Assembly: GCA_963760125.1 (NCBI GenBank)
Contig: CAVXBV010000002.1
Coordinates: forward strand, 109,244-173,243
Length of the DNA: 64,000 bases
Direction: 5' to 3'
DNA from: an uncultured Actinomycetota bacterium
Lineage (GTDB): Bacteria; Actinomycetota; Actinomycetes; Mycobacteriales; SCTD01
Part shown: positions 2,930 through 63,377 of the stretch, one piece after another
Layout: the number at the start of each line of letters is the position of its first letter
Numbering within the stretch: the first letter of the stretch is position 1
Position numbers and translations under genes: made by a program
The notes under the pieces: generated by a model
The model's database searches: none
What the model was told of the DNA's origin: nothing
What the model saw: the letters and a program-made list of their open reading frames with translations, nothing else

Positions 2930-3451
2930 TCACGGGTGGATCCGTACCCCCTTGAGCAGGTCCTCGTCGACAGGGTCGTCACCGGTCACGACGCTGAGGT
3001 CACCGGTGGTCTCCAGGACGACGGCACGGACCTGAGCCCGCGAGCGGACCCCGGACAGCCGGAGCTGCGCCCACAGCTCACCCTGGCTGATCCCGGCGGC
3101 GGCCAGGTTGAGCGACAGCACCTCACCGTCCAGGACAAGCGCGAGCGGCTCGTTGTCCACCAGCCCGCCGAGCAAGCCGCGCTGCCGGAGGCGGGCGACG
3201 ACGTACTGCAGCAGGTAGAGCAGGAGCAGCGCGAACGCGCCCGTCACCAGCGACGTGCCGCCGGTCGCCGTGGAGGCAACGGTCGAGCCGACGGCGATGG
3301 TCGCGGCGAAGTCGAAGCTCGACATCTTGGCCAGCGACCGGGGGCCGGACCACCGCGTCAGGACGATGACGACGACGTACACCCCGACGGTGCTGGTCAC
3401 GGCGACCAGCAGGTCGGACCGGGACGCCCCGAGATCGGCCAGCACGCTCAT
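2930..3451 (-). CDS. DUF421 (YetF-like) membrane protein
   Basis: MSVLADLG... with two N-terminal TM helices and a soluble C-terminal domain. AGGAGG SD lies 7 nt upstream of ATG 3451. Confidence 0.6.
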   Translation of the reverse strand: MSVLADLGASRSDLLVAVTSTVGVYVVVIVLTRWSGPRSLAKMSSFDFAATIAVGSTVASTATGGTSLVTGAFALLLLYLLQYVVARLRQRGLLGGLVDNEPLALVLDGEVLSLNLAAAGISQGELWAQLRLSGVRSRAQVRAVVLETTGDLSVVTGDDPVDEDLLKGVRIHP

Positions 3452-3499
3452 GTCGCCACCTCCTGGCAAGTCCGTGCCCCGCGCAACGACGGGGAACCG

Positions 3500-4774
3500 T
3501 CAGCCGGCGGCGCCGCTCTTCACGAAGGCGTTGTACGACGGGGCGATCGTCACGGTCGGGACCGAGGTCAGAGCCGTGGCCTCGATGGTCTTCAGCCCGT
3601 CACCGGTGTTGTAGAGCACCGTCTCCGCCTCGGGGTCGATGAGCCCCTGGGCCAGCAGCTTGCGCAGCGTCGCGACCGTCACTCCGCCTGCCGTCTCGGC
3701 GAACACGCCCTCGGTCTCGGCGAGCAACGAGATGCCCTCGATCACCTCGGCGTCGCTGACGTGGCCCATGGCGCCGCCGGTCCGACGTACGACGTCGAGG
3801 GCGTAGGGGCCGTCGGCGGGGTTGCCGATGGCGAGGCTCTTGGCGATCGTGTCGGGCTTGACGGGCTTGACCGCGTCCCAGCCGTTCTCGAAGGCCGTGG
3901 CGATCGGTGAGCACCCGGTCGCCTGCGCACCGAACACCTTGTAGGACGCCTCGTCCACCAGCCCGAGCTTGATGAGCTCACCGAACGCCTTGTCCACCTT
4001 GGTGAGCAGCGAGCCGGACGCCATCGGGATGACGACCTGCGGCGGGATGCGCCAGCCGAGCTGCTCCGCCACTTCGTAACCGAGCGTCTTGGAGCCCTCG
4101 GCGTAGTACGGGCGGACGTTGACGTTGACGAACGCCCACTCCTCGTTCTCGGCGATCTCGCTGCACAGTCGGTTCACGTCGTCGTAGTTGCCGTCGACAG
4201 CGACCAGGGTCTGGCCGTACACCGCGGTCTGGACGATCTTGCCTTGCTCGAGGTCGCTGGGGATGAACACGACGGCCTTGAGCCCGACATGGGTGGCGTG
4301 CGCAGCGACCGAGTTGGCGAGGTTGCCGGTCGAGGCGCAGGACACCGTGGTGTAGCCGAACCCGCGGGCGGCAGACAGAGCCACACTGACGACACGGTCC
4401 TTGAACGAGTGGGTCGGGTTGCCGCTGTCGTCCTTGACCCAGAGCTTGCGCATCCCCAGCGCCTTGGCCAGGTTGGGGGCCTCGCGCAGGCGGGTCATGC
4501 CGGCGCCGAGGTCCACGCGGGTCTCGGGGTCCTGGCCGGCCGGGAGCAGACCGGCGTAGCGCCAGATGGTCTGCGGACCGGCCTCGATGGACTGCCGGGT
4601 GACCAGCTTGAGCTTGTCGAGGTCGTACTCCACCTCGAGCGGCGCAAAACACTCCGCGCAGACGTGGACCGGGGTGAGCGGCACGCGGTGGCCGCACTCG
4701 CGGCAGATGAGCCCCTTCGCAGGGCTGGCGGCGAAGGCCGCTGGTAGGTCGGTGGTCGTCACAGTTCTCCTCAT
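3500..4774 (-). CDS. PLP-dependent threonine-synthase-like enzyme with an N-terminal Zn ribbon; possibly a methionine-pathway (homocysteine-forming) enzyme rather than ThrC
   Basis: CRECGH...CAECF zinc ribbon and the PLP lysine motif THSFKDRV. The length and overall pattern are ThrC-like. The start is ATG 4774 or GTG 4762, and both lie inside or next to riboswitch helix P1. Confidence 0.85.
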   Translation of the reverse strand: MRRTVTTTDLPAAFAASPAKGLICRECGHRVPLTPVHVCAECFAPLEVEYDLDKLKLVTRQSIEAGPQTIWRYAGLLPAGQDPETRVDLGAGMTRLREAPNLAKALGMRKLWVKDDSGNPTHSFKDRVVSVALSAARGFGYTTVSCASTGNLANSVAAHATHVGLKAVVFIPSDLEQGKIVQTAVYGQTLVAVDGNYDDVNRLCSEIAENEEWAFVNVNVRPYYAEGSKTLGYEVAEQLGWRIPPQVVIPMASGSLLTKVDKAFGELIKLGLVDEASYKVFGAQATGCSPIATAFENGWDAVKPVKPDTIAKSLAIGNPADGPYALDVVRRTGGAMGHVSDAEVIEGISLLAETEGVFAETAGGVTVATLRKLLAQGLIDPEAETVLYNTGDGLKTIEATALTSVPTVTIAPSYNAFVKSGAAG

Positions 4775-4873
4775 CTTCCCCGCACGAAGCGGGACGGAGT
4801 TGGCACCTGGCTCGTCGTGAGCTGGTTGCCGGGGCGTCATCGGGCCGTGTCCCTGGTGCCCCTCGGGATGAAG
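4769..4873 (-). promoter_or_regulatory. SAM-I (S-box) riboswitch, translational OFF type
   Basis: The minus-strand RNA reads CUUCAUC-CCGAG-GGGCACCAGGGACACGGCCCGAUGACGCCCC-GGCAACCAGC...GCCAGGUGCCAA-CUCCGUCCCGCUUCGUGCGGGGAA-GAUGAGG. The conserved blocks AGGGA, GGCCCGAUGA, CCCGGCAACC and GGUGCCAA.UCC are all present. The P1 3' strand covers the AUG and SD. Confidence 0.8.
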
Positions 4874-4909
4874 TCGTGCTGTTCAGTTGTGGGGACCGAC
4901 GTTACCGGA

Positions 4910-5140
4910 CTACTGCACGAGGGCCGCCGGGGCCGTGTTCTCTCTCGCCCGTCGCCAGAAGCGCAGGCGGGAGGCGTCCGCGGCCAACACCGCCTGAACA
5001 GCGCGGACGCTGTGCTGTGTCGCGTGGCACCGGCACGCGTGGCCGCACCCCACGGCGCCGGGGACAGGCCGCTGGCCGGACTCGTCGCGCAGGGAGGTGC
5101 AGGCGCAGTGCGCGCAGCGATCGACGTAGGTCACGAGCAT
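4910..5140 (-). CDS. Small Cys/His-rich protein of unknown function (76 aa)
   Basis: MLVTYVDRCAHCACTS...GCGHACRCHATQH. About 90% GC3 by hand count. GGAG lies 7 nt upstream of the ATG. Confidence 0.6.
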   Translation of the reverse strand: MLVTYVDRCAHCACTSLRDESGQRPVPGAVGCGHACRCHATQHSVRAVQAVLAADASRLRFWRRARENTAPAALVQ

Positions 5141-5318
5141 CAGGGACTCCGGTGAACGGGCAGCGGCCAGGTCCTCCAGCCGCCGTCCGTGAGGTCTCGC
5201 GTGGCGAGGTCCGTCGCGCCACCGGTCGTACTCGTCCTGTCGGTCCCCTGTCGCGCTCGCGGATCACCCTTCCGGGTAGTCACCGGCTGCGCGCACCGGG
5301 TCTGGGTAGGCTCCGCCA

Positions 5319-7487
5319 GTGCTGGAGCTCACCGCGCGGTTGCACCCGTCGGCCCTCGACCAGCGGCGCGGCATCGTCCGCCTGCACCCTGATGCGCTCG
5401 CCGCGCTGGGGCTCTCGCCATGGGACGTCGTGCTCCTGCGCGGTGCCCGCGTCACCGGTGGCCTGGTCGCGCTCGCCCCGCCCAACACCGGCCAGCACGA
5501 GCTGCTCTGCGACGAGCTGGTGCTCGGCAACCTCGGCGTCGCCACCGGAGCCCGCGTGTACGTCGAGCGCAGCGCCGATCGGGAGGCCTTGTCGGTCACG
5601 GTGAACGCTGCTCCGGAGATCGTGGCGGCCGTCTCGCCGGAGATGCTGCGCACGGCGCTGCTGGGCAAGGCCGTCACCACCGGTGACCAGGTCTCGCTGC
5701 TCCCCCAGGACCTCGCCCCGCTGCCCGAGATCGACGTCGTGGCCGCCCGGCGGTCGTTGGCCAACCTGCTCGGCCCTGGTTGGTCCTCGCTCCTGCTCCA
5801 GGTGGCAGCCGTGTCCCCCGACGGCCCCGGCGTGGTGACCATGGGGACGATCGTCGGGTTCGCCGGAAGCGTCACGACGAGCGGCAGCGCGACCCCGCTG
5901 GTCCTGCCCACCCCCGGCCCGTCGCACCCGCCGGTCGAGCTGCCCGGACTCGAGACGCAGGTTGCGGAGCTGACGGAGTGGCTCGAGCTCGGTTTCCACC
6001 GCGCAGACCTGCTGGCCCGGCTGGGCTCTGGGCCGCAGCTCGGGGTCCTGGTCACCGGGCCGGCTGGGTCCGGCAAGGCCGCCCTCGTCGAGGCGGTCAC
6101 CGCACGGATAGGGGCGCGGCTGCTGAGGGGCTGGGGCCCGACCATCGCCGGGCTGCAGGCGCAGGCAGCCGTCGATCAGCTGAAGGCCCTGCTGGCGGAC
6201 GCCCAGCGCGGACCGTGCGTGCTGCTGCTCGAGGACGTCGAGGCGATCGTGCCGCGGGAGGGCGGCGAGCCGTTGGCGTCGTACTTCCTGGGCCTGGTGC
6301 GGGAGACGACGGCGGCGGGACGGGTGGCGATCGTGTGCACGACCTCCCGTCCGGAGGCGGTCTCCGTGCAGCTGCGCAGGCCCGGGACGCTCGACCACGA
6401 GCTGGCAGTACCGCTGCCGGACCGGGCGCACCGGCTCGCGATCCTGCAGCTCGCCGTGAAGCAGGTGCCCTTGGACCCTGACGTCGTCCTCGACGACGTG
6501 GCCGGCCGTACGCCTGGCTTCGTGGCGGCGGATCTGCTGGCCCTGGTGCGCGAGGCCGGGACGCGGGCTGCGGCGCGGCAGACGTCGGAGGAGCACCCGG
6601 TGCTCGCTCATCGCGACCTCGACGCGGCGCTGGAGGTGGTCCGGCCGACGTCCTTGGGCGGTGCGCGCCTCGACGTCGCCTCGGTCTCGCTCGACGACGT
6701 CGGCAACATGACCGAGGTGAAGGCCGCGGTCACCGAGACGGTGCTGTGGCCGTTGCTGTACCCGGACACGTTCGCGCGGCTCGGGGTCGCCCCGCCGCAC
6801 GGGATCCTGCTCTACGGACCGCCGGGGTGCGGCAAGACCTTCCTCGTCAAGGCGATCGCCGGCTCCGGCCAGGCGAACGTCCTGTCGGTCAAGGGTGCCG
6901 AGGTGCTGAACAAGTGGGTCGGCGAGTCGGAGCGGGCAGTGCGTGACCTGTTCCGGCGCGCCCGTGAAGCCGCCCCGGCGGTGGTGTTCCTCGACGAGGT
7001 GGACGCGCTCGCCCCGACCCGTGGGCAGTCCACGGACGGCGGGACGACCGACCGGGTCGTGGCCTCCCTGCTCACCGAGCTCGACGGGGTGGAGGAGCTG
7101 CGCAACGTCGTCATCATCGGCGCCACCAACCGGCCCGACCTCATCGACCCGGCGCTGCTGCGGCCCGGCCGGCTCGAGCGGCTGATCTACGTCCCGCCGC
7201 CGGACGCCGAGGCACGCACAGCGATCCTCACCGCCGCGGTGAAGCGGGTGCCGCTCGGCGAGGGCGTCGACCTGGTCGACCTCGGGGTGCGGACGGAGGG
7301 GTACTCCGCGGCCGACTGCGCCGCCCTCGTGCGCGAGGCAGCGCTCACGGCGATGCGCGAGTCCAAGGAAGCAGCCGTCGTCACGGCGGCACACCTGGCC
7401 GCCGCGCTGGCGACCGTCCGCCCGTCGCTGGACCCGGCCCAGGTGGCGTCGCTCGCCGCGTTCGCCGCGTCCCGCGCCCAGGCCTGA
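5319..7487 (+). CDS. cpa: Cdc48-like AAA+ ATPase of actinobacteria (two AAA modules)
   Basis: N-domain followed by Walker A GPAGSGKAAL (D1) and GPPGCGKTFL (D2), plus [22 protein letters not shown] start. Confidence 0.9.
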   Translation: MLELTARLHPSALDQRRGIVRLHPDALAALGLSPWDVVLLRGARVTGGLVALAPPNTGQHELLCDELVLGNLGVATGARVYVERSADREALSVTVNAAPEIVAAVSPEMLRTALLGKAVTTGDQVSLLPQDLAPLPEIDVVAARRSLANLLGPGWSSLLLQVAAVSPDGPGVVTMGTIVGFAGSVTTSGSATPLVLPTPGPSHPPVELPGLETQVAELTEWLELGFHRADLLARLGSGPQLGVLVTGPAGSGKAALVEAVTARIGARLLRGWGPTIAGLQAQAAVDQLKALLADAQRGPCVLLLEDVEAIVPREGGEPLASYFLGLVRETTAAGRVAIVCTTSRPEAVSVQLRRPGTLDHELAVPLPDRAHRLAILQLAVKQVPLDPDVVLDDVAGRTPGFVAADLLALVREAGTRAAARQTSEEHPVLAHRDLDAALEVVRPTSLGGARLDVASVSLDDVGNMTEVKAAVTETVLWPLLYPDTFARLGVAPPHGILLYGPPGCGKTFLVKAIAGSGQANVLSVKGAEVLNKWVGESERAVRDLFRRAREAAPAVVFLDEVDALAPTRGQSTDGGTTDRVVASLLTELDGVEELRNVVIIGATNRPDLIDPALLRPGRLERLIYVPPPDAEARTAILTAAVKRVPLGEGVDLVDLGVRTEGYSAADCAALVREAALTAMRESKEAAVVTAAHLAAALATVRPSLDPAQVASLAAFAASRAQA

Positions 7488-11959: not shown

Positions 11960-12031
11960 AGCCGGCTGTCGGGATCGAACCGACGACCTACGCTTTACAA
12001 GAGCGTTGCGCTACCGCTGCGCCAAGCCGGC
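11960..12031 (-). tRNA. tRNA-Thr (anticodon UGU); CCA not encoded
   Basis: GCCGGCT-TG-GCGC-AGCGGTA-GCGC-A-ACGCT-CTTGTAA-AGCGT-AGGTC-GTCGG-TTCGATC-CCGAC-AGCCGGC-T folds as a cloverleaf. Confidence 0.93.
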
Positions 12032-24895: not shown

Positions 24896-25066
24896 TCAGC
24901 GCGCGCGCTTGGCCCGTCGCCGCTTGGCGACGGTGAACAGCACCGAGGCGACGAGCAGCAGCGCCGCCACCGCGAACAGCGCCACGACCGCCTTCACGAT
25001 CGCGACCACGACGAGGAGCACGGCCAGGACGAACAGCAGGTCGCTGGTCCGCGCCAACCGCTTCAT
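24896..25066 (-). CDS. 56-aa two-TM membrane peptide, last gene of the Che-like operon
   Basis: MKRLARTSDLLFVLAVLLVVVAIVKAVVALFAVAALLLVASVLFTVAKRRRAKRAR. It is below the ORF-track size cutoff. Its ATG overlaps the cheW stop codon (ATGA). Confidence 0.55.
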   Translation of the reverse strand: MKRLARTSDLLFVLAVLLVVVAIVKAVVALFAVAALLLVASVLFTVAKRRRAKRAR

Positions 25067-25479
25067 GCCTGCACCGCGGAGACCCGGGCACTGGCCACCA
25101 TGGCCGCCAGGTCCACGAGGAAGACCGATCCGGCGGTTCCGCGCAGCACCTCCACGACGTACGACGGAAGCTCGTCGGCCGAGCCCCCGGCGGCGCTGAG
25201 CTCCCCCTCGTCCACCACCGATCGCACCTTGTCGACGGCGACCCCGATGAAGGTGTCGCCGCTCTCCATGACCATCACGTCCCCGCGGTCACCGACCGCG
25301 CCCGAGCGCAGGTCCAGCACCGGGAGCGCCGTGCCGCGCAGGTCGAGCACCCCGGCGAGCGGCGGCGTCATGCCGGGCAGGTCGTCCAGGTTCTCCAGAC
25401 GCACGACCTCACGGATCGACGACAGGGGCGTGGCGTACTCCCTGGCCCCCAGGGCGAACGTCACCAGGCTTGCGCTCAT
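25063..25479 (-). CDS. cheW: CheW-like coupling protein
   Basis: LVTFALGAREYATPLSSIREVVRL...LAGVLDLRGTALPVLDLR...FIGVAVDKVRSVV. ATGA overlap with cheR. Confidence 0.85.
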   Translation of the reverse strand: MSASLVTFALGAREYATPLSSIREVVRLENLDDLPGMTPPLAGVLDLRGTALPVLDLRSGAVGDRGDVMVMESGDTFIGVAVDKVRSVVDEGELSAAGGSADELPSYVVEVLRGTAGSVFLVDLAAMVASARVSAVQA

Positions 25480-26876
25480 CGGACCTCCTGCTCGGGCGCC
25501 CGCGCCAGCGAGCGGCACAGCTGCACCAGCTCCCGCACGCTACGCCCTCCGAGCTCCTCGGCGGTCGCATCACCAGGCTGCAGCCCCAGGGTGTCCGCAG
25601 CAGCGGCGTACGCCGCGGACGACGGCCGGCCCAGTCGGGCGAGCACACCGGCGAGCAGGAACTGCGCGAAGCCCCTGGTCGGCTCGAGGTAGACCGCCTT
25701 GCGCAGGTCGACCAGTGCGTCCTCGTCGCGCCCGGCCGAGACCAGCGCCAGCGCCCGCAGGTAGTAGGCGTCGGCCCGCCCCGGATCGATCGCGGTCGCG
25801 TCGCCGGCGGCCTGGGCCGCCTGCTCGTAGAGCCCTGCCGCGAGGGACGCTCGCGCCTTGACCAGCAGGTGGTCGGGACTGGTCACCCGCCCCTCGTCCG
25901 TGCGCCCCTCGCCCCGACGCGCCTCGTCCCGACGGGGCTGGACCCGCCGTTCCGGCGCCGGCGGCGGAGGTCCCTCGTCCTCGGTACGGCGGTCGGGCAG
26001 AATCGTGCGGCGCTCAGGGGCCTGGTCCGGGGCGGGGTCGAGACGGCGGTAGACGAACGTGGCGCTGTCGCCGGTGCCCAGCGACACCAGGCGGAAGTCC
26101 TCGCTGATCTGCCAGAGCGTCTCGGCGTGACCGAGGAACAGGTAGCCCCCGTCGCGCAGGCTGTGGTGCAGCCGCATCATCAGCGCCCGGGTCGTCTCGC
26201 GGGCGAAGTAGATCGTGACGTTGCGGCACAGGACGAGGTCGATGCGCTCGCTGGGCGGGAACGGGACCGCCTCGGTGACCAGGTTGTGGTGCCGGAACTC
26301 CACCAGGTCCCGTACCTCCTGCCGCACCTCCACGCCGCCCTCCGGGGTGGGCACGAAGAAGCGGCCGAGCTGCTCCGGCGTCGCGAGCGCCACCGCGCGG
26401 GCGCCGTACCTGCCGACCTTGGCCGCCGCCAGCGCGCGGGTGGAGACGTCGGTGGCGAGCACCTTGACGTCCCAGCCGTCGGTGCTCGGCAGCAGCTCGC
26501 GCAGCGCCATCGCCAGGCCGTAGGGCTCTTCGCCCGTGGAGCACCCGGCGCTCCAGATGCGCAGCCGCTTGCCGTTGGCCTCCGCGTGCCGGAGCAGCTC
26601 CGGCAGCACGTGCGTGCGCAGCACCCGGGTCTGCGGGGGGTTGCGGAAGAAGTGGGTCTCCTGGATGGTGACCTCGTTGAGCAGGGCCTGGCGCTCCCCG
26701 ACGTCGGAGAGCAGACCGAGGTAGGTCGCGACGTCCGGTGCCCCGGTCGCACGCAGCCGCTCTCCCACTGAGTACGACATCGACTGCAGCCGGCTGTCGT
26801 CGAACACCAGCCCGGCGGCCTGCGACAGCAGCGAGCGCAGCGCCTCGAACTCCGGCCGCGCGAGCTGCAGGCTCAT
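25476..26876 (-). CDS. cheR: CheR-type protein-glutamate O-methyltransferase with C-terminal TPR domain
   Basis: ETHFFRNP, RIWSAGCSTGEEPYGLAMAL, DLVLCRNVTIYF, then a charged linker and TPR repeats (ADAYYLRALALVSAGRDEDALVDLRKAVYLEP). Confidence 0.9.
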   Translation of the reverse strand: MSLQLARPEFEALRSLLSQAAGLVFDDSRLQSMSYSVGERLRATGAPDVATYLGLLSDVGERQALLNEVTIQETHFFRNPPQTRVLRTHVLPELLRHAEANGKRLRIWSAGCSTGEEPYGLAMALRELLPSTDGWDVKVLATDVSTRALAAAKVGRYGARAVALATPEQLGRFFVPTPEGGVEVRQEVRDLVEFRHHNLVTEAVPFPPSERIDLVLCRNVTIYFARETTRALMMRLHHSLRDGGYLFLGHAETLWQISEDFRLVSLGTGDSATFVYRRLDPAPDQAPERRTILPDRRTEDEGPPPPAPERRVQPRRDEARRGEGRTDEGRVTSPDHLLVKARASLAAGLYEQAAQAAGDATAIDPGRADAYYLRALALVSAGRDEDALVDLRKAVYLEPTRGFAQFLLAGVLARLGRPSSAAYAAAADTLGLQPGDATAEELGGRSVRELVQLCRSLARAPEQEVR

Positions 26877-28015
26877 GTCCGACCGACCAGCGCCAGCAGG
26901 GCCCCCGCGATCTGCGTGATCGGCAGCTGCTGCCCCACGGCGCCCGTCACCCAGGCGACCTGCGGCATGCCGTAGACCGTGCTCGTGAGCTCGTCCTGGC
27001 CAAGGGTCGCCGCGCCGCGGTCCCGCATCGCCTTGAGGCCGGCGGCACCGTCGCGTCCCATGCCGGTCAGGAGCACACCGACGGCGTCCGGCCCGAGGGC
27101 GCTCGCGATGCTGGAGAAGCACTGGTCGATGCCCGGCACGTGGAACTGACCGGCCTCCGGCGGGACGCAGACGGTCCGCAGCCGGGCGTCCTGGACGAGC
27201 AGGTTCTGACCGCTCGGCGCGATCGTCACGGTGCCGGGCTCGAGCCGTCTCCCGGACGCCCCGACGACGACCGGCAGGGGCACCAGGTCGTTGAGCCAGC
27301 TGGCCAGGCCGGGGATGAAGCCCTCGGCCATGTGCTGGACGACGAGCACGGCCTGGGTGAGGTCGGCGGGCAGTCCCCCCAACACGGTCTGCAGGGCCTG
27401 AGGTCCCCCTGTCGAGGCGCCGATCGCCAGCAGCTTCACCCCTGGGTGCACCGGGTCCTGGACCGACGGAGGGCCGGCCGGCTGGGGCACCGCCGCGGAG
27501 TCCTGGTCCACCACGGGGGACGGAGCCACGGCTCGGTCGGTGTCGTGCACCCGGCCCCGCGGGTGGGTGATGACTCGGACCCGGGCGGCGACCCGGATGC
27601 GGCGTCGCAGCTGGTCGGCGTAGTCGTCGAGCGTCCCCACGTGGTCGGGGCTCGGCTTGGCCATGACGTCGACGGCGCCGGCAGCGAGAGCCTCGAGGGC
27701 GTTGTCGCTCTCCGTGCCGGTCACGTGGGCGCTGAAGACGACGATCGGTCTCGGGCTGCCGGCCATGATCCGCTCGATCGCCTCGAGCCCCCCCATGACC
27801 GGGAGGTCGAGGTCCATCAGCACGACGGTCGGCTGGAGGCGTCGGACGAGGGCCACGCCCTCCTTGCCGTTGCGCGCTTCGCCCACCACGGTCATCGAAG
27901 GGTCGGAGTCGATGACACCGCGCAGGAACCGGCGCTGCACGGGAGAGTCGTCCACGACGACCACCGAGGTCGGGGGGACGGGGACCACGGTCTCCAGCGA
28001 GACGGACTGCGTCAT
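26873..28015 (-). CDS. cheB: CheB-type response regulator / protein-glutamate methylesterase
   Basis: REC domain (VVVVDDSP...VVLMDLDLPVMGG) plus esterase triad context (IGASTGGPQAL, VVQHMAEGF, LLTGMGRDGAAGL). Confidence 0.92.
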   Translation of the reverse strand: MTQSVSLETVVPVPPTSVVVVDDSPVQRRFLRGVIDSDPSMTVVGEARNGKEGVALVRRLQPTVVLMDLDLPVMGGLEAIERIMAGSPRPIVVFSAHVTGTESDNALEALAAGAVDVMAKPSPDHVGTLDDYADQLRRRIRVAARVRVITHPRGRVHDTDRAVAPSPVVDQDSAAVPQPAGPPSVQDPVHPGVKLLAIGASTGGPQALQTVLGGLPADLTQAVLVVQHMAEGFIPGLASWLNDLVPLPVVVGASGRRLEPGTVTIAPSGQNLLVQDARLRTVCVPPEAGQFHVPGIDQCFSSIASALGPDAVGVLLTGMGRDGAAGLKAMRDRGAATLGQDELTSTVYGMPQVAWVTGAVGQQLPITQIAGALLALVGRT

Positions 28016-28302
28016 GCGGGGTGGTCCAGCAGTGCGTGCAAGAGGTCGACCAGCGGGGCGAGGGTCGCGGGTCGGAGGTCGGCCTCGGCGGCGCGCGCCG
28101 ACCGGCAGATCTCGACCTCCCCGACCACCCAGGCGCTGCTGGCGAGCGTGTGCACGTCCCGTCGGACGTCCTCGAACGCGCCCCCGTCGACGAGCCGGGG
28201 CAGCCGGGTGCGGACCTCCCCGAGGAAGGCCTCACGCAGGTCGCGGGCGAGGTCGGTGTCGGTGAGGCTGGGGCGCTGCACCTGCACCCCCACGACCCTC
28301 AC
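28012..28302 (-). CDS. Stand-alone Hpt-like (histidine phosphotransfer) domain protein, 96 aa
   Basis: LREAFLGEVRTRLPRLVDGGAFEDVRRDVHTLASSAWVVGEVEI resembles the Hpt helix pair with the H-x-L-(K)-(G)-S-A site. ATGA overlap with cheB. The exact GTG start is uncertain. Confidence 0.55.
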   Translation of the reverse strand: MRVVGVQVQRPSLTDTDLARDLREAFLGEVRTRLPRLVDGGAFEDVRRDVHTLASSAWVVGEVEICRSARAAEADLRPATLAPLVDLLHALLDHPA

Positions 28303-63301: not shown

Positions 63302-63377
63302 TGGAGCCGCCTGTCAGAATCGAACTGACGACCTATTCATTACGAGTGAATCGCTCTACCAACTGAGCTAAGGCGGC
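63302..63377 (-). tRNA. tRNA-Thr (anticodon CGU), CCA encoded
   Basis: GCCGCCT-TA-GCTC-AGTTGGTA-GAGC-G-ATTCA-CTCGTAA-TGAAT-AGGTC-GTCAG-TTCGATT-CTGAC-AGGCGGC-T-CCA. Confidence 0.93.

Follow-up and report, generated by a model that had tools for sequence, protein, structure and literature searches.

The 64,000-nucleotide (nt) stretch of DNA analysed here, which we call the window, comes from an uncultured Actinomycetota bacterium (GenBank assembly GCA_963760125.1, contig CAVXBV010000002.1, positions 109,244 to 173,243) and carries on its minus strand a SAM-I riboswitch, of the family that binds S-adenosylmethionine (SAM), directly 5' of a gene for an enzyme related to threonine synthase (ThrC). 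We consider it highly probable that SAM locks helix P1 of this riboswitch, hides the Shine-Dalgarno (SD) sequence of the gene and stops its translation, and that the enzyme makes homocysteine from O-phosphohomoserine with sulfur taken from a ThiS-type thiocarboxylate. An enzyme of this kind, the ThrC homologue MetM, is the homocysteine synthase of Streptomyces according to the account of Hasebe et al. (2024, AEM 90:e01247-24) given in PMC12172450; in Streptomyces albulus, by the same account, metM has a SAM riboswitch in front of it and metO is the sulfur-carrier gene. Papers citing Hasebe et al. describe MetM as converting O-phosphohomoserine and the MetO thiocarboxylate to homocysteine. The GapMind 2026 preprint gives the steps of the pathway as the MetO carrier, the Mec hydrolase, the MoeZ sulfur ligase and the MetO-thiocarboxylate-dependent action of MetM on O-phosphohomoserine, and a third preprint describes the work in the same way. 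The original prediction for this DNA, made from its letters without database searches, had pointed to such a report in Streptomyces, and that report exists. The window system is thus a member of the type described in 2024 that belongs to another actinobacterial lineage, has a compact aptamer and lacks a carrier gene beside it. Its parts are as follows (window coordinates, all on the minus strand).

4768-4874, minus: SAM-I riboswitch aptamer, a four-way junction of helices P1-P4 in a compact form with minimal P3 (RF00162)
4867-4873, minus: 5' strand of P1, CUUCAUC (cmscan alignment)
4769-4775, minus: 3' strand of P1, GAUGAGG, within which lie the first four SD bases and an AUG that does not initiate translation (4774-4772) (cmscan alignment and sequence)
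4767-4772, minus: SD sequence GAGGAG, four bases 5' of the GTG start, with four of its six bases inside P1 (sequence)
4760-4762, minus: GTG start codon of the MetM-like gene (N-termini of homologues)
3500-4762, minus: gene for a MetM-like, ThrC-family pyridoxal 5'-phosphate (PLP) enzyme of 420 amino acids plus stop, a putative O-phosphohomoserine-dependent homocysteine synthase (Pfam PALP, TIGR00260, identity and synteny)
4625-4711, minus: N-terminal four-cysteine zinc-ribbon-like module, residues 18-46, with C20, C23, C35 and C38 (invariant cysteines)
4394-4408, minus: PLP-binding motif SFKDR, residues 119-123, with Schiff-base lysine K121 (translation and alignment)

A conserved SAM-I riboswitch precedes the gene

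A search of Rfam 15 with cmscan matched family RF00162 to positions 4874-4768 of the minus strand at 71.4 bits and E = 1e-14, where the gathering score is 44.4; the match runs untruncated through model positions 1-108. The SAM-I core that had been read from the letters at 4873-4769 therefore lies within one base of the covariance-model match. The proposed P1 helix, in which CUUCAUC (4873-4867) pairs with GAUGAGG (4775-4769) and one of the pairs is U-G, appears exactly so in the cmscan alignment. The conserved SAM-I core is also seen in P2, P3, P4 and the joining regions of the RF00162 alignment, and an unconstrained minimum free energy (MFE) fold of the window leader reproduced P1-P4.

To place the element among its relatives we scanned one genome per species and obtained 80 loci whose proteins are 61-86% identical to the window protein; all are from Actinomycetota, and eight are from Streptomyces. 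With a covariance model of our own (R1, built from 33 related leaders), under which the window aptamer scores 102 bits, a SAM-I element was found directly 5' of the orthologous gene in 77 of the 80 loci, which represent 25 or more actinobacterial genera or families, as well as in the window. The gathering score of RF00162 itself was passed in 9 of 11 representative loci. The three loci with no SAM-I match are L004, in which the gene lies at a contig edge, and L014 and L076, which are from metagenome-assembled genomes. The association of SAM-I with metM is nearly universal in the sampled Actinomycetota. L014 (5603-5874) and L076 are the sole evaluable loci in which no SAM-I element stands 5' of the metM-like gene; both have metO, and in L014 two tRNA genes occupy the place of the riboswitch.

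The aptamer structure is also strongly supported by covariation. Across 78 orthologous leaders 99.8% of the cells are paired and 9 pairs show compensatory double changes; alignments that had been slid as a control were 39-50% paired, and the observed values were reached in none of 500 shuffles. The P1 core CUCAUC/GAUGAG is almost invariant in the 78 leader sequences. The compact form of the aptamer is common to the window and its nearest relatives (L081-L084), whereas most relatives carry a P3 insert of 20-100 nt, and this is one respect in which the window differs from the S. albulus arrangement.

The ribosome-binding site overlaps helix P1

Two in-frame start codons follow the aptamer core, the AUG at 4774 and the GUG at 4762. 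The original prediction had placed both of these and the GAGGAG SD sequence correctly, and had taken the AUG as the start with the GUG as the alternative; our analysis reverses that choice. Close homologues begin MTTLDLPAAFA or MTSLAPAAFA, which match VTTTDLPAAFA as translated from GTG 4762. The AUG within GAUGAG is in frame in 22 of 71 related leaders, which is about the one-third expected by chance. In the closest relatives, whose proteins are 89-91% identical, the start codon is a TTG, which lies 17 nt downstream and out of frame with the P1 AUG. These three observations identify GTG 4762 as the true start. The AUG at 4774, which also has no SD sequence before it, was rejected as a start and is conserved P1 sequence only. 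An open reading frame (ORF) spanning 3500-4840 was likewise rejected as a gene model, since its ATG falls inside the aptamer.

In most of the 71 related leaders 13-26 nt separate the start codon from the G of GAUGAG before it, and P1 adjoins or shares bases with a GAGGAG or AAGGAG. In the window the gap between the end of the aptamer and the GTG is 6 nt, too short for an expression platform of its own, and the predicted probability that the first four SD bases are unpaired is 0.00-0.12. A promoter and terminator scan of positions 3300-5400 found no terminator-like hairpin. Since the 3' strand of P1 overlaps the SD sequence and no terminator follows, the design is a translational one, as had been proposed. 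The overlap can be read directly from the sequence, and from it we infer that the riboswitch is a translational OFF switch acting on the metM orthologue. The MFE fold also contains a 4-bp extension of P1, in which ACAG (4882-4879) pairs with CUGU (4764-4761, part of the GUG), and we do not claim it, as a pairing of this size is to be expected by chance.

In such a switch, abundant SAM would bind the four-way junction and lock P1; the locked P1 would bury the SD sequence, the compact aptamer would crowd the start codon, the 30S subunit could not load and the enzyme would not be made. When SAM is scarce P1 would breathe and translation would proceed. Such feedback is logical for an enzyme that makes homocysteine, because homocysteine is a precursor of methionine and SAM. 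The window leader has the same aptamer family as other translational SAM-I (S-box) riboswitches, in which the 3' strand of P1 likewise doubles as part of the ribosome-binding site. The classic S-box leaders of Bacillota have terminator/antiterminator platforms; the window leader differs from them in having no terminator.

Some relatives have more elaborate or different leaders. About 30 of the 78 SAM-I leaders, the window not among them, carry an enlarged P3 insert with the motif (G)CGAGGC(C/U), and in those leaders its complement, GGCCUCG(C), lies in the linker from SD to start codon, so that 7-10 bp could form; examples are L058 (5788-5960), L020 (5824-5985), L012 (1491-1650), L053 (4555-4735) and L026 (5847-6020). 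Changes that look compensatory occur in L005 (CGAGGCU/AGCCUCG) and in L026 and L036 (ACGAGGC/GCCUCGU). MFE folds pair the insert motif either within the P3 extension or with the linker, and shuffled linkers were beaten at p < 0.05 in only 16 of the 78 loci. This pairing might act as a further lock on the ribosome-binding site or as a strand-exchange element. In two further leaders, L060 (5763-5980, from Acidimicrobiia) and L062 (1737-1920), SAM-I is present and a different sequence, GAUGAGUUGCCGAAGAGCGG..., follows P1, with the first in-frame start 72-77 nt downstream, which suggests an expression platform other than an SD sequence within P1.

The enzyme is a probable counterpart of Streptomyces MetM

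The protein matches Pfam PALP at 2.7e-67, which makes it a fold-type II PLP enzyme. The two motifs that had been noticed in its translation are both present as described: SFKDR at residues 119-123, which aligns with the SFKDR of Aquifex ThrC (PDB 2ZSJ), and an N-terminal CxxC...CxxC ribbon, C20-x2-C23...C35-x2-C38 when numbered from GTG 4762. S119, K121, D122 and R123, as well as the four ribbon cysteines, do not vary among 15 diverse relatives or among 81 actinobacterial sequences. The ribbon region gives a weak NinF-type match and also aligns to NCBIfam models of several zinc-ribbon 'threonine synthase' families and of cysteate synthase, so the zinc ribbon is not a mark of MetM alone.

An AlphaFold2 (AF2) model of the protein has a ThrC fold, with a mean predicted local distance difference test score (pLDDT) of 76.7 and a predicted template modelling score (pTM) of 0.81; the ribbon is modelled with beta strands at residues 15-20 and 41-46 at a pLDDT of about 86. 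Foldseek comparison of the model with bacterial ThrC structures gave TM-scores, normalised to the target, of 0.75-0.80, and PDB 2C2B, of plant threonine synthase, is among the structure matches. Sequence and fold searches of the PDB returned ThrCs only and no solved MetM. Canonical ThrCs (M. tuberculosis Rv1295, PDB 2D1F, and Aquifex 2ZSJ) resemble the window protein in fold, in the SFKDR lysine motif, in the predicted substrate O-phosphohomoserine and in matching TIGR00260. They differ from it in several respects: the solved ThrCs, that of M. tuberculosis included, are only 31-35% identical to it (30-35% in the Foldseek alignments of the bacterial entries), their matches begin at query residue 62-68 and they lack the N-terminal ribbon region of about 65 residues. 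In addition, the window gene, unlike canonical thrC, is preceded by SAM-I and lies outside a hom-thrC-thrB operon, its neighbours being genes for YetF, a Na+/H+ exchanger, GroEL and an AAA ATPase.

The most similar protein matched is 91% identical and the most similar genome locus 86%. Over 413 amino acids the window protein shares 62% identity with the protein at the metM position in Streptomyces locus L058, and its identity to the eight Streptomyces proteins as a set is 61-62%. All eight Streptomyces loci have the order SAM-I, ThrC-like gene and then a gene for a 91-residue ThiS-family protein ending AVAGG, which is the layout reported for S. albulus metM/metO in the published description. 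In 55 of the 80 loci, the eight from Streptomyces among them, and in the window, a groEL gene follows downstream in the same orientation. The 62% identity and the common groEL position make the window gene a positional orthologue of metM. A neighbour-joining tree of the enzymes follows taxonomy and contains no separate paralogue clade. The window enzyme is accordingly, to judge from its sequence and position, probably the actinobacterial counterpart of MetM. By analogy with the S. albulus work, it would take O-phosphohomoserine and eliminate phosphate to give a PLP-bound vinylglycine-type intermediate, as in ThrC; sulfur from a ThiS/MoaD-type protein thiocarboxylate would then add at C-gamma to give homocysteine, the precursor of methionine and SAM.

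The arrangement thus resembles S. albulus metM-metO in having SAM-I directly upstream, a ThrC-fold PLP enzyme with the Cys4 ribbon that is 62% identical to the Streptomyces orthologues, and a position upstream of groEL. It differs in that a YetF/DUF421 gene follows in place of metO or a cold-shock gene, and in that the window organism belongs to a Frankiales/Mycobacteriales-like lineage and not to Streptomyces.

Carrier gene and sulfur donor

The metO gene follows the enzyme gene directly in 40 of the 80 loci, among them all eight from Streptomyces, and encodes a 91-residue ThiS-family protein that ends AVAGG, sometimes with one extra residue. In the other 40 loci no metO was found within 6-10 kb, nor was it found in the closest relatives. 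The missing adjacent carrier, which the original prediction had pointed out and left as its open question, is thus not peculiar to the window. The metO gene is adjacent in Streptomyces, in Streptosporangiales, in most Propionibacteriales loci, in Nanopelagicales and in Acidimicrobiia, and it is not adjacent in Micromonosporaceae, Geodermatophilaceae, Jatrophihabitans, Pseudonocardiales, Sporichthyaceae, Nakamurella and the window clade. The arrangement without metO is common and follows lineage. The nearest relatives have the AAA ATPase gene, metM and then groEL, with no metO; beside the orthologues that lack it we found no genes of sulfur function, the neighbours being genes for GNAT proteins, an extracytoplasmic function (ECF) sigma factor and GroEL.

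Among 81 enzyme sequences no residue separates metO-linked from metO-less enzymes at 80% conservation, and 122 columns are invariant. Since there is no consistent residue difference and the Cys4 ribbon is kept in all, the two groups appear to use the same type of partner. Streptomyces MetO is 61% identical to mycobacterial CysO, which makes it plausible that the carrier is encoded elsewhere or is shared with the cysteine pathway. The donor in the window lineage would most likely be a MetO/CysO-type carrier encoded elsewhere in the genome, with MoeZ to charge it and Mec to release it. The best 120 matches to a MetO profile are mostly from Streptomyces and Nocardioides and include no genus of the metO-less lineages, and this negative is weak evidence since the list is saturated; the best 120 matches to M. 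tuberculosis CysO are dominated by Mycobacterium.

Some MetO proteins, those of loci L063, L066, L069, L076 and L080, have one residue past the terminal GG (GGC, GGS or GGR). Such a residue would have to be trimmed from the C-terminus before the thiocarboxylate could form, which would fit the involvement of a Mec-type protease.

Two other thiocarboxylate systems are useful for comparison. In M. tuberculosis the CysO-CysM-Mec system is a thiocarboxylate route to cysteine. It resembles the proposed reaction in that an O-phospho amino acid receives sulfur from a ThiS/MoaD-type thiocarboxylate through a PLP enzyme of fold-type II, and in the 61% identity between the carriers; it differs in that its enzyme belongs to the CysM/CysK family and not to ThrC, its product is cysteine and none of the genes of its cluster are in the window. 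The Wolinella-type HcyS/HcyD/HcyF/MetY system, attributed to Krishnamoorthy and Begley, reportedly also makes homocysteine with sulfur from a ThiS-like protein thiocarboxylate. It is said to use a MetY-type fold-type I enzyme and O-acyl-homoserine, rather than a ThrC-like enzyme and O-phosphohomoserine.

Alternative explanations

Several observations weigh against the reading of the window as a SAM-controlled MetM system, and they bear in part on the enzyme and in part on the switch. The function that we assign to the window protein and to its metO-less orthologues is a prediction from sequence and gene context. The link to S. albulus MetM runs through other Streptomyces species, and the presence of a separate canonical thrC in the source genome is an assumption. 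The protein passes the NCBIfam thrC equivalog model TIGR00260 (280.8 bits against a cut-off of 167.1) and falls just below the cut-off of PRK08197 (292.5 against 303). With the ThrC fold of the model, these scores would suit a genuine or bifunctional threonine synthase, with SAM tuning the split of O-phosphohomoserine between threonine and methionine. So would the report in PMC12172450 that a cyanobacterial homologue 51.6% identical to MetM, with a metO-like gene adjacent, has threonine synthase and deaminase activity in vitro. We nevertheless think a threonine synthase very unlikely here. TIGR00260 does not separate MetM from ThrC, because the Streptomyces protein at the metM position (L058:5950-7230) passes the same model at 275.5 bits, and annotations, according to the GapMind authors, often mistake MetM for threonine synthase. 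The gene lies outside a hom-thrC-thrB context, and SAM-I is kept upstream in nearly all of the sampled loci. The direction of control is also wrong for a threonine synthase: with a true ThrC under an OFF switch, less threonine would be made at high SAM, the opposite of what happens in plants, where threonine synthase is activated by SAM, whereas an OFF switch on an enzyme of the methionine branch amounts to ordinary feedback. The argument that SAM repression fits methionine biosynthesis and not threonine synthesis had been the core of the original prediction, and it gains from the published descriptions of MetM, from the identity to the Streptomyces metM-position proteins and from the groEL position.

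As to the switch, a nearest-neighbour model makes P1 stable even without ligand (ddG about 6.9 kcal/mol), and the MFE of the leader does not differ significantly from that of shuffled sequences (z = -0.42); we do not use leader folding energy as evidence, because the MFE z-score is uninformative for this GC-rich RNA. No alternative anti-sequestor helix is predicted for the window leader. This last result, and the extra complementarity between P3 insert and linker in many relatives, which suggests a platform more elaborate than the P1/SD overlap, would fit a riboswitch that acts mainly on transcription, through Rho-dependent termination or through mRNA decay after a translation block, and not by SD occlusion alone. 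Given that no intrinsic terminator was found, that the start codon stands too close to the aptamer for a separate platform and that Rho involvement would follow from SD occlusion anyway, we regard a mainly transcriptional mechanism as rather unlikely. The remaining points concern sulfur. A tblastn search of the 64 kb with three MetO sequences (E <= 0.01) found no ThiS/MoaD-like gene, nor does the window contain a Mec-, MoeZ- or CysM-like gene or any other met gene. The enzyme of the window lineage might therefore be of the MetM type and have no dedicated MetO, borrowing CysO or taking free sulfide, and this would alter the last step of the proposed reaction only. The empty surroundings of the gene in half of the loci and in the closest relatives, the downstream genes unrelated to sulfur, the carrier identity that makes a common carrier structurally plausible and, weakly, the genera missing from the MetO-profile matches all point that way. 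However, the lack of any consistent residue difference and the retention of the Cys4 ribbon argue for the same type of partner, and carrier genes are often unlinked: Mec and MoeZ, given in the GapMind preprint as further steps of the pathway, have no more trace in the 64 kb than ThiS has. On balance we consider borrowed CysO or free sulfide in this lineage somewhat improbable. A broader proposal has two parts, which we put forward together and tentatively: that in about half of the sampled loci, which take in entire lineages and that of the window among them, MetM works with no dedicated co-transcribed MetO and receives its sulfur from CysO or as free sulfide, and, separately, that the P3-insert/linker complementarity (CGAGGCC/GGCCUCG) is a possibly undescribed second lock on the ribosome-binding site in many relatives.

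Surrounding genes

One further feature adjoins the riboswitch.

4875-5318, no strand assigned: divergent intergenic region between the riboswitch and a gene for a Cdc48-like AAA ATPase (5319-7487, plus strand), which presumably holds the promoter (position)

The promoter scan found no sigma-70-like site in 3300-5400. The spacer between riboswitch and AAA ATPase gene is about 445 nt long in the window against about 150-175 nt in the closest relatives L081 and L083, and the extra DNA in 4875-5318 showed no blastn similarity to any related locus compared. Just 5' of the riboswitch and on the same strand, positions 4910-5140 (minus) contain a 76-codon cysteine-rich ORF (MLVTYVDRCAHCACTS...GCGHACRCH...). 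The G+C content at third codon positions in its frame is about 0.81 over 4875-5318, and the ORF has no Pfam match and no blastn similarity to related loci; it is a putative gene. On the other side, a YetF/DUF421 membrane-protein gene (2930-3451, minus) starts 48 nt past the stop codon of the metM-like gene with a GGAGG SD sequence of its own. It may be co-transcribed with the metM-like gene, as no terminator lies between the two, and it is not kept as a neighbour in the relatives.

The rest of the window is largely a run of housekeeping genes (groEL, gdh, cysS, ispD, carD, radA, clpC, lysS, coaX, nadC/B, panC, folP, ftsH, hpt, tilS, ppa and prfC). Amid these, in a window of high GC content, lie genes for CheW-like and CheB-like (response-regulator methylesterase) proteins at 25066-28231 (minus), and Rfam models place tRNA genes at 11960-12031 (minus, 68.9 bits) and 63305-63377 (minus, 72.3 bits).

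Implications

These results do not overturn the current understanding of the system, which was described in 2024. Since TIGR00260 accepts both the window protein and a Streptomyces metM-position protein, MetM-type genes are likely to be named 'threonine synthase', and pathway reconstructions would then miss a methionine route in many Actinomycetota. An upstream SAM-I element, seen in 77 of 80 loci, combined with the Cys4 ribbon and the vicinity of groEL, is a candidate discriminator of MetM, derived from metM-like loci alone. The half of the loci that have no carrier gene raises the question of the route by which methionine receives its sulfur in Micromonosporaceae, Geodermatophilaceae, Pseudonocardiales and the lineage of the window. 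If the carrier is shared there, a single thiocarboxylate carrier would feed both cysteine and methionine synthesis, and the enzyme alone would be under SAM control.

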